A DNA stretch of 64,000 bases from a virus. Lineage: Duplodnaviria; Caudoviricetes. Made by a program: the position numbers and the translations under genes. Below are positions 24,010-58,696 of this stretch, one piece after another. Position 1 is the stretch's first letter. Every line of letters begins with the position of its first letter. The notes below the pieces were generated by a model that had not been told where the DNA came from, made no database searches, and saw only the letters and a program-made list of their open reading frames with translations. Location: positions 21,071 to 85,070 of the IMG/VR virus record IMGVR_UViG_3300044693_000247, one strand, 5' to 3'.

Positions 24010-24263
24010 CGGGTGGCCTTCTTCCGGTCACGCTCCCCGGCCTGACCGACGACCTCTTGCGCACGTCGCACGGACACCGACCGGACCCAGATCGATGGCG
24101 TCATCCGGTCGCCAGGCCGCGCCTCGGACTCGATGCGCGCCGCTTCCCTGACCAGTTCCATGCTGGTGTCGTCGAGGTTGATCATAATGCGATTCCGCTG
24201 GCGCTGGGACACAGGTACGGGTGGGCGCCCCCGACCCAGGGGCTCTGATTTCTTGCGGGCCAT
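24006..24263 (-). CDS. Ribbon-helix-helix transcriptional regulator
   Basis: GRGRPP then RIMINLDDTSMELVREAA...PSIWVR; first gene of the leftward operon. Confidence 0.7.
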   Translation of the reverse strand: MARKKSEPLGRGRPPVPVSQRQRNRIMINLDDTSMELVREAARIESEARPGDRMTPSIWVRSVSVRRAQEVVGQAGERDRKKATR

Positions 24264-24304
24264 GTCCTTCGAGTGGTGGCAGACTCGCTCGAAAGAGGCA
24301 AGGA

Positions 24305-24388
24305 TTTTCTGCAATATTCTGCAACATCATACCTGAACAGGATGTCAGTTATTTTTCTGTTGCACGAAATTACGGCGCGAGTTACCTT
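24305..24388 (+). promoter_or_regulatory. Divergent control region; rightward sigma70 promoter and operator repeats
   Basis: AT-rich; TTGCAC(24360)-17-TACCTT(24383); TTCTGCAA at 24307 and 24317; TGCAAC/GTTGCA inverted pair. Confidence 0.7.
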
Positions 24389-24394
24389 CTGAGC

Positions 24395-24736
24395 ATGGAC
24401 ATGACGACGACCTCCGCGGCGGTGAAGGCGACCCGCTACATGATGGCCAAGCCCTGCAAGGACTGCGGCGAGCGGACCAGCGCTCTGCTGACCACACGCT
24501 ACCCGGCCAGCGACGCGACCGGCGGCCCGGTGTTCTACTGCAACGGCTGGATCTGCGTGTCCTGCCGCGGCTGCGGAAAGCCGAAGATCGCGCACCTCGT
24601 TAAGGGCAAGATCTCGCACCAGCACGAGTGCGACGCCAAGTGCATGTCGTCGCGCGGCTTCAAGTGCGAGTGCTCCTGCGGCGGCAAGAACCATGGTGCC
24701 TCGTACGAGGCCGTCGCTTCGGCGGTGGGCGCGTAA
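24395..24736 (+). CDS. Cys-rich Zn-binding early protein
   Basis: CKDC, CVSCRGC, HECDAKC, CECSCGGKNHG. Confidence 0.7.
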   Translation: MDMTTTSAAVKATRYMMAKPCKDCGERTSALLTTRYPASDATGGPVFYCNGWICVSCRGCGKPKIAHLVKGKISHQHECDAKCMSSRGFKCECSCGGKNHGASYEAVASAVGA

Positions 24737-24762: not shown

Positions 24763-25017
24763 ATGACGATGACCACGATCCTCAGCAGCGGCTACAACAA
24801 CGAGACCAGGCGCTACGAGCGCCGTCTGTCGGACGGCACGGTGGAGGTCCGGCGGTTTGCGGCGGTCGATGCCGACGGTAACGAGATCGGCCGGTTCGCC
24901 GAACGAGACGTCGCGGCCGGCGCGTGCCAGGACGCCGCCCGCGAGGACGACAGCGACGGCGAGGGCTACGAGGTCCGCGAGGTGTTCGTTCCCGCGTCGG
25001 AGCTGGAGGCGGAGTAG
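24763..25017 (+). CDS. Hypothetical early protein
   Basis: RBS AAGGAG. Confidence 0.65.
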   Translation: MTMTTILSSGYNNETRRYERRLSDGTVEVRRFAAVDADGNEIGRFAERDVAAGACQDAAREDDSDGEGYEVREVFVPASELEAE

Positions 25018-25068
25018 CTGACGCCCCCACGCTGGCCCTCTACGGAGGGCGGGCGCGGCGGAATCAGC
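25017..25068 (+). ncRNA. Structured intergenic RNA motif, copy 1
   Basis: GCTGA-CGCCC-CCA-CGCTG-[GCCCTC TACG GAGGGC]-GGGCG-CGGCG-GAA-TCAGC. Confidence 0.6.
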
Positions 25069-25103
25069 ACCGACACCACAACCACAACCACAGGAGAACG
25101 ACC

Positions 25104-25475
25104 ATGATCACAGAGATCAAACACCCGACCCTGAACATTTCCGCCCCTGCCGCCGTGTGGGCGGCTGCCGGGTACACGGTGTACTCCGACGGCCAGATTT
25201 CGCACGGGCCGCACGGATTCGAGGCGCTGCTGGTGCGCTCCCTGGTCCACGTCCCCGACGACGAGCCGGGCGCCGTGCGAGTCGCCTGGGCGATGGACCA
25301 GCGGGCCAAAGAGCATGACGAGCGCACCCGGGTGACCGCCGAGGCCCGGATGGCCGACTCAATCCGTGAGCTGGCCCTGTCGTTGCGGGCCGAGTCGGCC
25401 GAGGCGCTCATCGCGCGCCTTCCGGGAAATATCAGGCCGTACGTGGAGACGGTGTTTCGCGCGCACAAGGGTTGA
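25104..25475 (+). CDS. Hypothetical early protein
   Basis: ACCACA x3 leader and RBS AGGAG. Confidence 0.7.
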   Translation: MITEIKHPTLNISAPAAVWAAAGYTVYSDGQISHGPHGFEALLVRSLVHVPDDEPGAVRVAWAMDQRAKEHDERTRVTAEARMADSIRELALSLRAESAEALIARLPGNIRPYVETVFRAHKG

Positions 25476-25528
25476 CGCCCCCACGCTGGCCCCGGTGGCA
25501 ACACCGGGGCGGGCGCGGCGGAATCAGC
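25471..25528 (+). ncRNA. Structured intergenic RNA motif, copy 2
   Basis: GTTGA-CGCCC-CCA-CGCTG-[GCCCCGGTG GCAA CACCGGGGC]-GGGCG-CGGCG-GAA-TCAGC. Confidence 0.6.
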
Positions 25529-25545
25529 CGAGAGGAGATGAGACG

Positions 25546-25803
25546 ATGACGACGATCCCGCACACGACAGGCAACGCCGCTCCGGACGGAGCGCGTCCAC
25601 GATTCTTCGCCAACGCCCGCAAGGCGCTGGTCGAGCGCTACACCGCCGACGGATGGGTGAGCGAGGAGAAGCCGATCTACTTCGACGCGCGCGACGTCGA
25701 TGATTGGCGCGATCGGTCTGCCGTCGCCAAGGCGCTGGGCCTGCACAACGGCAGCGAAGGGCTCTGGATCGGCAAGCGCATCGTGGCTTTCGTCGAATCG
25801 TAA
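25546..25803 (+). CDS. Hypothetical early protein
   Basis: RBS GAGGAG upstream. Confidence 0.65.
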   Translation: MTTIPHTTGNAAPDGARPRFFANARKALVERYTADGWVSEEKPIYFDARDVDDWRDRSAVAKALGLHNGSEGLWIGKRIVAFVES

Positions 25804-33463: not shown

Positions 33464-33765
33464 CAGCGGACCACCCGTGCTCTACGTCGTCCTCCAACTC
33501 CTCCGCGCCGACGCCGACCGGGTGACCGTCACGGCTGCGTTCGGTGCGTTCGAGACGCCGGAGGAAGCCGAGCGCCGATTCCAATCAGAGCGCCTCATCG
33601 CTCCCGCTGGAGCCCATCACACGATTGTGGAGGTCGAACCGCCTCCGACCGAATGACCCGATTCCCCCGTCCGCGGGCGCTCCGCCCGCTCCTCCCCCCA
33701 AACCCACCCGGGGTGGGGCGCCCGCGGCGAGGGGATCAAACGCAGCGACAGACGAAAGGACACCG

Positions 33766-43051: not shown

Positions 43052-43431
43052 TCGGCCGCCGCAAATTCTCGCCCCCGCTCCGCACCTCGTCGTCGGCAAT
43101 GGTGCCGTCGTGGGACCTCCTTTCTGCGCGGAGCGGGGGCTCTTTCCCGTCGACATGGGAGCGCGCCGCGCGGTGGTTCACGCTGGCGGTGGTGTTTCTG
43201 TTGGCGTCGGCGGTGACGGGGTGCGAACTGCCGGTGACGAACGAGCAAGCGCGCGAAACCGTGAACGCGCACATGGCTTACGCCAGAGACGACAGGACAG
43301 GGCTCTCCTTCGCGTTCATGAGTCGCGGAGTCGGCAACGCGCAGATCGGAAGCCTCACCAACGTTCCGTGCTCCGCGCAGGTGTTGAGCCTGATTTCGGA
43401 CGGCGGAGTGGCATCGAGAGGTGGTCAATGA
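43048..43431 (+). CDS. Putative lipoprotein
   Basis: FTLAVVFLLASAVTGC lipobox; start uncertain. Confidence 0.6.
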   Translation: MIGRRKFSPPLRTSSSAMVPSWDLLSARSGGSFPSTWERAARWFTLAVVFLLASAVTGCELPVTNEQARETVNAHMAYARDDRTGLSFAFMSRGVGNAQIGSLTNVPCSAQVLSLISDGGVASRGGQ

Positions 43432-57767: not shown

Positions 57768-58696
57768 AGGCGCCGTTCCCATATTTCGGCGGCAAGCGAA
57801 CCGTCGCGCCCGAGGTCTGGCGTCGTTTCGGATCGCCGAAGCAGTACATCGAGCCGTTCTGTGGATCGGCCGCGATCCTTCTCGCCGCCCCGGCCCCCGC
57901 GTCGCTCGAAGTGATCGGCGACATGAACGGATTCATCGCGAACTTCTGGCGAGCGGTTGTCCATCAGCACGCCGAGGTTGCGCGATGGGCCGACTACCCC
58001 GTCTCTCACGTCGACCTGCACGCGCGGCACGCCTGGCTGATGGAACGGCGTCAAGCTTTGGCCGCCGGCCTCGAAGACCCTGAATGGACCGGCAACGCTC
58101 AGGCAGCCGGATGGTGGTTGTGGGGTCAGTGCTGCTGGATCGGGTCGGGGTGGTGCGAGTGGGATCGCGATCGGCAACGCGGGCATGGGGATTCAGGCAG
58201 CGGGCAAGGTCAGGTCCCGCACGTCGGCAACGCGGGCATGGGGATTCAGGCAGCGGGCAAGGTCCCGCACGTCAGCGACGGGGGCAGGGGCGCTCCGTGG
58301 ACGTCATCAGGAGCCGTCGCAATGACCTGGCTCGCGAAGCTATCCGCCCGCATGGAGCGCGTGCGCGTCGTTCACGGCGACTGGAAGCGATGCCTTAACC
58401 ACCACTACGGCGGCAACAACACCGCCGTCTTTCTCGATCCTCCGTACGAGGGGTACGAGGGTCTGTACGGCGCTCGTCCGATCGCCGCCGATGTAGCCGA
58501 TTGGTGCCGCGAGAATTCGGGCCTGAAGATCGCGCTCTGCGGGCACCGCGGGGACTACCAGCTCGAAGGGTGGTCGGTGTTCGAGTGGGAGCGCGAGCGG
58601 AACACGTACGGTGGTGACAGCACAAAAGGGGACGAGGCGATCTGGTTTTCGCCATCGTGCGCTCAAGGCGGTGGGCAGCTGGAGTTGTGCGCATGA
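57764..58696 (+). CDS. D12-class DNA adenine methylase
   Basis: PFPYFGGKR, YIEPFCGSAA, GDW, VFLDPPY. Confidence 0.92.
   Translation: MKAPFPYFGGKRTVAPEVWRRFGSPKQYIEPFCGSAAILLAAPAPASLEVIGDMNGFIANFWRAVVHQHAEVARWADYPVSHVDLHARHAWLMERRQALAAGLEDPEWTGNAQAAGWWLWGQCCWIGSGWCEWDRDRQRGHGDSGSGQGQVPHVGNAGMGIQAAGKVPHVSDGGRGAPWTSSGAVAMTWLAKLSARMERVRVVHGDWKRCLNHHYGGNNTAVFLDPPYEGYEGLYGARPIAADVADWCRENSGLKIALCGHRGDYQLEGWSVFEWERERNTYGGDSTKGDEAIWFSPSCAQGGGQLELCA
58171..58271 (+). repeat. Tandem 53/48-bp repeat inside the D12 methylase gene
   Basis: TCGGCAACGCGGGCATGGGGATTCAGGCAGCGGGCAAGGTC..CCGCACG at 58171 and 58224; first copy has an extra AGGTC. Confidence 0.9.

Follow-up and report, generated by a model that had tools for sequence, protein, structure and literature searches.

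Why would a phage carry two copies of one GC-rich hairpin in the same operon, 454 nt apart, on either side of a gene without known homologues? We examined this question in a 64,000-nt stretch of viral DNA, called the window below, which corresponds to bases 21071-85070 of an 85-kb IMG/VR virus record with 67.5% GC and an estimated completeness of 82% (label G000). The element turned out to be a hairpin motif not known before, which is present in at least three phage lineages and stands at the 3' ends of mobile orphan genes. What it may do there is considered after the evidence for its structure, its distribution and its association with a gene cassette.

Gene layout around the hairpin copies

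The gene layout was taken from a GC3-based gene map, which agrees with the gene calls from an independent assembly of the same phage. The features referred to in the text are the following.

Ends near 24185, leftward: leftward gene block (GC3 map and gene calls of the independent assembly)
24186..24400, no strand: AT-rich region of 215 nt with repeated TTCTGCAA-like boxes, separating the leftward and rightward blocks
24401-24736, + strand: Cys-rich ORF of 111 aa, the first ORF of the rightward block
24763..25017, + strand: gene A, 84 aa (82 aa from an alternative start at 24769), with its TAG at 25015-25017 abutting copy 1
25017..25068, + strand: hairpin copy 1, -38.7 kcal/mol, z -4.95, 76.3 bits with covariance model R1
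25017-25021 with 25064-25068, + strand: P1 of copy 1
25035-25040 with 25045-25050, + strand: apical stem of copy 1, 6 bp, loop c(UACG)g at 25041-25044
25104..25475, + strand: gene B, 123 aa, between the two hairpin copies, with its TGA at 25473-25475
25471..25528, + strand: hairpin copy 2, -48 kcal/mol, z -5.23, 87.1 bits with model R1
Within copy 2, + strand: apical stem of 9 bp, loop g(GCAA)c at 25498-25501
25546..25803, + strand: gene C, 85 aa, 3' of copy 2

Located about 620 nt upstream of copy 1, the AT-rich region is probably the early control region, and the layout suggests that genes A, B and C are early genes. None of the three belongs to a Pfam or PHROG family. For gene B we found zero homologues among 5.8 billion clustered proteins and in IMG/VR, and no relative of the phage that lacks gene B. 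The only homologue of gene A is distant (59% identity) and has about 50 further residues after the position at which gene A stops at the hairpin. Genes A, B and C are paralogous neither among themselves nor to the 69-aa ORF that precedes the hairpin in a second phage (ORF69 of L087, below). A plain tandem gene duplication is therefore rejected, because the genes that flank the copies are not paralogous.

Two direct repeats with variable tips

An initial annotation of this DNA had described two intergenic copies of a shared motif, each beginning at the upstream stop codon and ending shortly before the next ribosome binding site (RBS). Our measurements agree with this description. The two arms, GACGCCCCCACGCTGG and GGGCGCGGCGGAATCAGC (a 16-mer and an 18-mer), match without mismatch only at 25020/25474 and 25051/25511, respectively, and are absent from shuffled sequences; the whole 85-kb record contains exactly two copies of the hairpin. 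An alignment of the copies shows identity in two blocks, one running from TGACG into the first three pairs of the tip and the other from its last three pairs as far as AATCAGC. Their borders are sharp, with unrelated sequence beyond them, and the element has a GC content of about 79%. The 5' edge of copy 1 is the last base of the gene A stop codon, and P1 of copy 2 includes the TGA of gene B, which places gene B between two direct repeats. From the end of the hairpin to the next RBS there are 25 nt for copy 1 and 3 nt for copy 2. Two further claims, that P1 tolerates a C-to-U change as a G.U pair and that the central hairpin varies while remaining paired, are likewise confirmed: P1 is G(C/U)UGA with UCAGC, and the apical stems of 6 and 9 bp are fully paired beneath their UACG and GCAA loops.

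Fold of the element

Each window copy is predicted to fold into one long imperfect hairpin of 52-58 nt. None of 200 shuffles was as stable, and both copies rank among the most stable 60-nt folds within the 64-kb window. Read from the foot, the lower stem consists of P1, a 2x2 loop of CG against AA, CC/GG, a C.C mismatch, CC/GG, an A.C mismatch, CGCU/GGCG and a G.G mismatch; the tip opens with GCC/GGC and then diverges. The stem has 22-25 pairs in total, broken by 1x1 and 2x2 loops.

For the first three copies (the two in the window and that of L087), 98.4% of the cells are paired. Three compensatory pairs and a 3-bp change in length are found, all of them in the tip, together with one G.U change in P1 and zero change in the lower stem. 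Thus, the covariation that had been claimed is real at the tip and absent from the lower stem, which is invariant in these three copies. The wider proposal of selection on a structured RNA fares better: the element is duplicated, its fold has a z of about -5, and pairing is kept at the variable tips.

The initial annotation also suggested a pseudoknot between CGCUG and CGGCG, and here the energies point the other way. The nested hairpin has -37.0, -43.1 and -43.1 kcal/mol, compared to -24.2, -30.3 and -30.2 kcal/mol for P1, P2 and the tip hairpin, which represent the nested part of the pseudoknot only; that is, the alternative is worse by 12.8-12.9 kcal/mol. The minimum-energy fold pairs the same bases in another register (CC/GG, CC/GG and CGCU/GGCG). 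In addition, the pseudoknot helix would be left with 0-nt linkers at three of four positions, namely towards the tip, towards P2, and from GGGCG to CGGCG. A loop of 0 nt is unable to cross a 5-bp helix in an H-type pseudoknot, and by this rule of geometry the pseudoknot would be sterically disfavoured. Because the pseudoknot is energetically worse and its linkers have zero length, we read the element as a plain imperfect hairpin.

A search of Rfam 15 gave no match at the gathering score in the whole window and none at E<=10 in positions 24950-25600. The element had been said to match no known ribozyme or riboswitch, which stands. The further suggestion of a self-cleaving element or ligand sensor does not, given the same empty search and a plain hairpin whose loops are 1x1 and 2x2, a fold that therefore offers no multi-helix core or pocket.

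Copies in unrelated phages

We found four distinct copies of the element: the two in the window and one each in L087 and G001. The L087 copy was found by a gapped pattern search over JGI metagenomes. Its arms are identical to those of the window copies, and its tip is a third version of 9 bp, with CCGCGCTC/GAGCGCGG past the shared G-C pair and a UCCG cap. L087 is a soil phage contig of 54.5% GC with small ORFs, a ParB-like protein and a DNA polymerase B of the protein-primed type (PolB); comparison with the genome of the window by blastn and tblastx showed nothing else in common. This phage is present across many samples at 99.4-100% identity. In one variant the TGA of P1 is changed to TGT, by which one pair is lost and the upstream ORF is extended by 22 codons. 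Relatives identified by their ParB (L107-L112, 48% identity) have no copy.

The G001 copy was found by a pattern in which the unpaired positions were left free. G001 is a complete temperate phage genome of 43.6 kb and 66% GC with terminal repeats, and the neighbours of its hairpin are a DUF932 protein and an Mgm101/Rad52-like protein. Its 3' arm GGCGGGCGCGGCGGAATCAG and inner 5' arm ACGCTGGCC have the same letters as the window copies, and a 5-nt loop closes its CCCCGG/CCGGGG tip. The outer 5' arm is diverged, with about 8 extra bases; the sequence still folds end to end at -33 kcal/mol, with P1 kept through a compensatory swap of G-C to C-G. The 3' arm is therefore letter-perfect in all four copies, including the one with a decayed 5' arm. 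Beyond the hairpin, no DNA is common to G001 and the genome of the window, and just two weak, distant protein matches link them (31-35% identity). Across the three carriers (G000, 67.5% GC; L087, 54.5%; G001, 66%), we found no other common DNA and no common neighbouring protein.

Other searches were negative within their scope. Seven exact and gapped patterns applied to IMG/VR added only G001, all other matches being chance occurrences inside coding sequences. BLAST of the element against GenBank phages and plasmids returned noise (E>0.1), and nothing in GenBank phages matched the 3-kb neighbourhood in a BLAST search. The strict pattern had a single match in 185,579 species genomes (L088), which we rejected as a chance event since it sits in a TolB/PD40-like reading frame and forms no hairpin. 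We also sampled 401 Acidobacteriota genomes, chosen on a guess at the host of L087; nine matches to the 3' arm with one mismatch were found, none of which scored above 13 bits with model R1.

Traits common to the four copies

All four copies are in sense orientation within a series of small ORFs, in a non-structural region of the genome, and at its foot each hairpin touches the stop codon of the ORF before it. The stop is a TGA within P1 in two copies and a TAG directly 5' of the element, inside a common GAGTAGC, in the other two. The distance from the hairpin to the next start codon is variable, from 17 to 48 nt. By a rough estimate, four independent abutments of this kind would occur by chance with a probability of 1e-5 to 1e-6, given spacers of 70-100 nt. 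Recoding, whether as SECIS, read-through or a +1 frameshift into the next gene, was considered and rejected, as the frame relations are inconsistent between copies: the frame of the downstream gene is open through the G000 copies and not through the L087 copy.

The tips indicate which strand matters. Three of the four (UACG, GCAA and UCCG) are UNCG or GNRA tetraloops with classical closing pairs, and they are so on the sense strand only; their antisense complements CGUA, UUGC and CGGA belong to no special tetraloop class. About 12 of the 256 tetraloops fall into these classes, so that by our own arithmetic the chance of three such loops running is near 1e-4. Sense-only tetraloops in combination with sense orientation argue that selection acts on the transcript. 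G.U pairs do not discriminate, since each strand gains and loses them about equally, and the strand is thus set only by the tetraloops and the orientation of the genes.

A cassette in the L087 lineage

The L087 lineage shows both presence and absence at the site of the hairpin. In a sister contig, an identical 80-aa protein and a 98% identical ParB are separated by 65 nt. At the same site, L087 and a dozen other contigs have 379 nt, which hold ORF69 and the hairpin. A perfect 34-nt direct repeat in L087 (936-969 and 1248-1281, offset 312) brackets exactly the RBS, ORF69 and the hairpin, and loss of one repeat unit predicts a spacer of 67 nt, within 2 nt of that in the sister contig. We conclude that ORF69 and the hairpin form a cassette of 312 nt that has been gained or lost, in which the hairpin occupies the 3' end of ORF69.

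The two parts of the cassette can also be parted. A homologue of ORF69 (92% identical) in another phage context diverges at its C-terminus a few codons before the position of the hairpin, and only 28 nt separate it from the next gene; ORF and hairpin are therefore separable. The edges of the L087 indel are formed by the 34-nt repeat, which is distinct from the hairpin, whereas in the window it is the hairpin itself that is repeated around gene B. Recombination may take place at the hairpin arms, with the proviso that the one indel seen in L087 is bounded by the other repeat.

Transcription signals near the hairpin

A GC-rich stem-loop directly after a gene is one of the marks of an intrinsic terminator, and the element has it. 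The sequences behind the four copies, ACCGACAC, CGAGAGGA, CGATAGCA and CCACCCCA, contain zero or one T each and thus no U-tract. We therefore rejected a canonical intrinsic terminator, there being no U-rich tract within about 8 nt after the stem, and a scan of the window with the intrinsic-terminator consensus listed neither copy. The missing U-tract weighs little, because terminators with U-tracts are not enriched anywhere in the window (20 found versus about 29 expected). With a strong terminator before gene B, gene C or the ParB and PolB genes, these genes would depend on a promoter behind it or on antitermination. We detected no sigma-70-like promoter in or beside either window copy; TTGACG is present in copy 2 only, with no -10 box at the right spacing.

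A proposed transferable RNA module at gene ends

The explanation that we tentatively favour, and about which we are nearly evenly divided, is that the element is a horizontally exchanged RNA module for gene ends, which serves as an attenuator or a barrier to decay and whose arms double as patches for recombination. It builds on what is observed, namely the structure, the strand, the position of the stop codon, the spread over three lineages and one cassette indel, and it supposes an effect on the transcript and recombination at the arms. During transcription of the early operon, a very stable hairpin would form from the 52-58 nt that follow the stop codon of a small accessory gene, with a lower stem of fixed sequence and constant mismatches and a variable tip closed by a UNCG or GNRA cap. 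This hairpin would form or protect an RNA 3' end. By attenuating read-through, by blocking 3'-to-5' decay, or by both, it would adjust the dosage of the upstream cistron against that of the following genes. Ribosomes would halt at the foot of the hairpin, so that each translation termination would open the lower stem and may couple the two processes. At the level of DNA, the invariant 20-nt arms would be patches of homology common to otherwise unrelated phages, where small orphan genes could be gained, lost and swapped; gene B would be one such cassette.

One feature does not follow from a role at gene ends. Because any GC-rich hairpin stops an exonuclease, this reading leaves the letter-perfect 20-nt 3' arm and the mismatches unexplained. 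Their preservation in three unrelated phages of differing GC content points to recognition by a factor or to recent selfish spread.

Recognition by a factor is an unlikely account overall, though the first we would turn to should the gene-end module fail. A trans-acting RNA-binding protein or nuclease would read the fixed, mismatched lower stem and ignore the tip. Examples would be processing of the RNase III type, as between the early genes of T7, or a loading site for an antitermination factor or a translational regulator. This would account for a lower stem that is invariant down to its C.C, A.C and G.G mismatches and its CG/AA loop beside a tip that is free to change, and for a 3' arm that is identical in four of four copies even where the 5' arm has decayed. 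A helix of about 22 bp interrupted by small internal loops is also the general shape of phage RNase III signals, and the placement between cistrons of an early operon suits such a role. On the other hand, the carriers share no phage protein near the element (the matches between G000 and G001 are the two distant ones at 31-35% identity), so the factor would have to be a host protein conserved across hosts of 54-67% GC. Moreover, the element matches no known protein-binding RNA family, and on reading the sequence we see no K-turn or loop-E consensus.

A selfish miniature palindrome, similar to REP or MITE elements, or the scar of one, is a rather improbable alternative. A recombinase in trans would mobilize it, and it would insert at gene ends together with stop codons of its own. 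The same 58-nt unit with sharp borders does occur in three unrelated genomes, with about 79% GC even in a genome of 54.5% GC; homology of the upstream ORF stops a few codons before the element, and a TGA, in two copies with a TAG, stands at its 5' edge. However, we found no target-site duplications and no terminal inverted repeats besides the hairpin, there are one or two copies per genome, and neither G000 nor G001 encodes a Y1 transposase of the REP/IS200 type. Apart from the one match in coding sequence, there were no copies in the 185,579 species genomes, the 401 Acidobacteriota genomes, GenBank phages or plasmids. Sense orientation in four of four copies and tetraloops of the RNA type speak for selection on the transcript instead.

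A further reading, to which we assign a slightly smaller probability than to a selfish palindrome, is that the hairpin is an autonomous, sequence-specific mobile signal of accessory-gene cassettes. It would be either a folded recombination site outside the integron system or a horizontally acquired decoy or handle RNA for a conserved host factor. Such a signal would explain why a letter-perfect 3' arm stands beside a tip and a 5' arm that can change.

The initial annotation had raised an attC-like site, that is, a recombination site of folded single-stranded DNA that tags the gene cassettes of phage early regions. We consider this very unlikely, despite a similar plan: a conserved outer stem, an unpaired spacer, an imperfect conserved inner stem and a variable terminal structure, behind promoterless small ORFs, with two co-oriented copies around gene B and an indel of ORF plus hairpin in L087. 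Specifically, RYYYAAC and GTTRRRY boxes (the R''/R' consensus) are missing on either strand, the ends reading GYTGACG and GAATCAGC; the mismatches are symmetric rather than extrahelical bases, and the tetraloops are of the RNA type. The sole tyrosine recombinases of G000 and G001 are ordinary phage integrases, 9-16 kb away, which score 29.6 and 26.5 bits with TIGR02249 against a cut-off of 265 for integron integrases. In L087, finally, the hairpin lies inside the cassette and the indel edges are the 34-nt repeat.

A pseudoknotted catalytic or ligand-sensing RNA (a self-cleaving ribozyme or a riboswitch) is hardly credible: CGCUG and CGGCG are complementary and the conserved unpaired bases could in principle form a core, but the nested hairpin is better by about 13 kcal/mol, the linkers have zero length, Rfam is empty at E<=10, internal loops are just 1x1 and 2x2, and in G001 the hairpin persists although the 5' segment of P2 is replaced and carries an 8-nt bulge. 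In sum, the ribozyme, riboswitch, attC and pseudoknot readings are not supported.

Implications

Early regions are the main store of orphan genes in phages, and how these genes move and how their dose is set is poorly understood outside the T4-type phages. Here, in three phages that are not related to each other, one small hairpin of RNA type stands at the end of unrelated orphan genes, and it moves together with, or next to, a demonstrable cassette. The distribution across phages and the behaviour of the cassette carry most of the interest, and of all the features of the element the invariant 3' arm most deserves experimental work. If the element is a transferable gene-end signal, it would extend the idea of the promoter-early stem-loop (PeSL) to GC-rich temperate phages and to exchange between lineages, and it would provide a compact part for the control of read-through in high-GC hosts. 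If the invariant arm binds a factor, the two would be a new pair for RNA-protein recognition. Either way, the element is a candidate for a new RNA family, and a covariance model (R1) exists for finding further members.

Comparison with known systems

The put sites of HK022 and the nut sites of lambda resemble the element in being sense-strand RNA, repeated in early units just behind the stop codon of an early gene. A put site has two stem-loops, and nut consists of boxA and a 15-nt boxB that is read through its loop; the element is a single stem of 22-25 bp with a loop free to vary, and both copies are in one operon. The put-like antitermination RNA proposed earlier is improbable, as the element is a single stem-loop without the two-stem architecture of put. 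Integron attC sites share the conserved outer and inner stems, the unpaired spacer, the variable terminal structure and the place at the 3' end of a cassette ORF, all of which the element has. It lacks their core consensus, extrahelical bases and integron integrase, and the observed cassette boundary lies elsewhere.

REP elements and BIMEs are imperfect GC-rich palindromes just behind the stop codons of operons, with sequence conserved between copies, as in our case, and REP elements are known to stabilize upstream mRNA. They differ in numbering tens to hundreds of copies per host chromosome and in their association with a RAYT Y1 transposase; the strict pattern gave no genuine copy in 185,579 species genomes, and G000 and G001 encode no such transposase. 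The RNase III signals between the early genes of T7 leave a protective 3' hairpin after cutting. They lie between cistrons and recur within one early transcript, each as a hairpin of about 50-60 nt with internal loops, and the predicted fold of the element is likewise largely paired over roughly two helical turns, with internal loops. The two are not similar in sequence, and the T7 sites are limited to one phage group while the element crosses lineages.

In the moron units of temperate phages, a gene is flanked by its own promoter and a factor-independent terminator. The likeness lies in a stable hairpin that immediately follows a small accessory ORF, the two being inserted between backbone genes and present or absent among close relatives. 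Unlike the terminator of a moron, the element has no U-tract, and from phage to phage one hairpin sequence is combined with unrelated ORFs.

The PeSLs of T4-type phages lie between genes, where they begin at the stop codon of the preceding gene and flank ORFans; in reporters they terminate transcription, and they mediate indels and mini-circles (Arbiol et al. 2010, PMC2839356; Comeau et al. 2014, PMC4122927). Our element is similar in that it is a repeated intergenic stem-loop that begins at the upstream stop codon, in a plastic early or accessory region next to ORFans, with indels between near-identical phages. It differs in several respects. A PeSL has a strong sigma-70 promoter, and none is detectable in or beside the element. 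A T4-type genome has about 50 PeSLs, which are AT-rich and have polyG/polyC stems, compared to one or two copies of about 79% GC here. Termination has been seen in PeSL reporters, while the element is known from its sequence and predicted fold. We know of no description of letter-for-letter conservation of PeSLs across unrelated phages. The element is not a PeSL in the strict sense; PeSLs are its closest documented analogue.

Cassette boundary and a natural variant

The third copy of the hairpin element lies on a contig (L087) of an unrelated phage of 54.5% GC, where it forms a 312-nt cassette with an RBS and ORF69, a 69-aa reading frame upstream of the hairpin. We found that the boundary of this cassette is a perfect 34-nt direct repeat, and a variant of the same hairpin copy was found on a second contig (L117).

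L087 936-969 and 1248-1281: direct repeat, AGGTAAAATTGCGGCAATTCGCCGCATGAAAGGG
L117 2076-2137: natural variant of the L087 element copy, TGA to TGT in the basal stem P1

The substitution in L117 removes the stop codon, so that ORF69 is extended from 69 to 91 aa and reads through the hairpin. In L087 the repeat carries the box TAAAAT as well as a small hairpin, GCGGC/GCCGC, and one copy precedes each of ORF69 and the downstream ParB gene.

Reading frames through the element

In the window, the frame of the downstream gene stays open through both hairpin copies (24924-25475 for the first, 25366-25803 for the second), and the open frame is identical relative to the element, GAC GCC CCC ACG CTG GCC .... 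Because the L087 copy is not open in the frame of its downstream gene, the open frame in the window copies is probably a matter of chance in GC-rich DNA. Between the first copy and the RBS of the gene that follows (25104-25475) is a CA-rich leader, ACCACAACCACAACCACA (25075-25092), that could serve as an unstructured enhancer of translation.

The single match in a scan of 185,579 species genomes, in a Candidatus Acidiferrales MAG (L088 3479-3530, minus strand), matched both element arms at 25 specified bases. We rejected it as a chance match: the site falls inside a coding frame of TolB/PD40-like type, and the hairpin is absent.

Other repeats and hairpins in the window

58171-58211 and 58224-58264: perfect 41-nt direct repeat (family D16) inside a coding region, spacing 53 nt
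1006-1065: very stable local hairpin, -49.8 kcal/mol
33671-33730: very stable local hairpin, -40.1 kcal/mol
43073-43150: very stable local hairpin, followed by TCTTTCCC

The last, with TCTTTCCC after it, is the most terminator-like site that we noticed. Across the whole window, 20 hairpin-plus-U-tract sites resembling terminators were counted against approximately 29 expected from shuffles, with neither strand enriched. It seems that neither the phage nor, presumably, its host depends on canonical intrinsic terminators.

Start of the rightward operon

24401-24736, plus strand: Cys-rich gene, first in the operon, 111-aa product

This protein carries numerous Cys pairs (CKDC, CNGWIC, CRGC, CDAKC, CECSC); searches of Pfam and NCBIfam assigned it to no family, and it looks like a zinc-ribbon protein. 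Upstream, an AT-rich stretch of 215 nt (24186-24400) with repeated boxes, TTCTGCAA(T/C)A and TTCTGTTGCA, separates the leftward from the rightward gene block, and probably represents the immunity region's divergent early promoters together with its operators.
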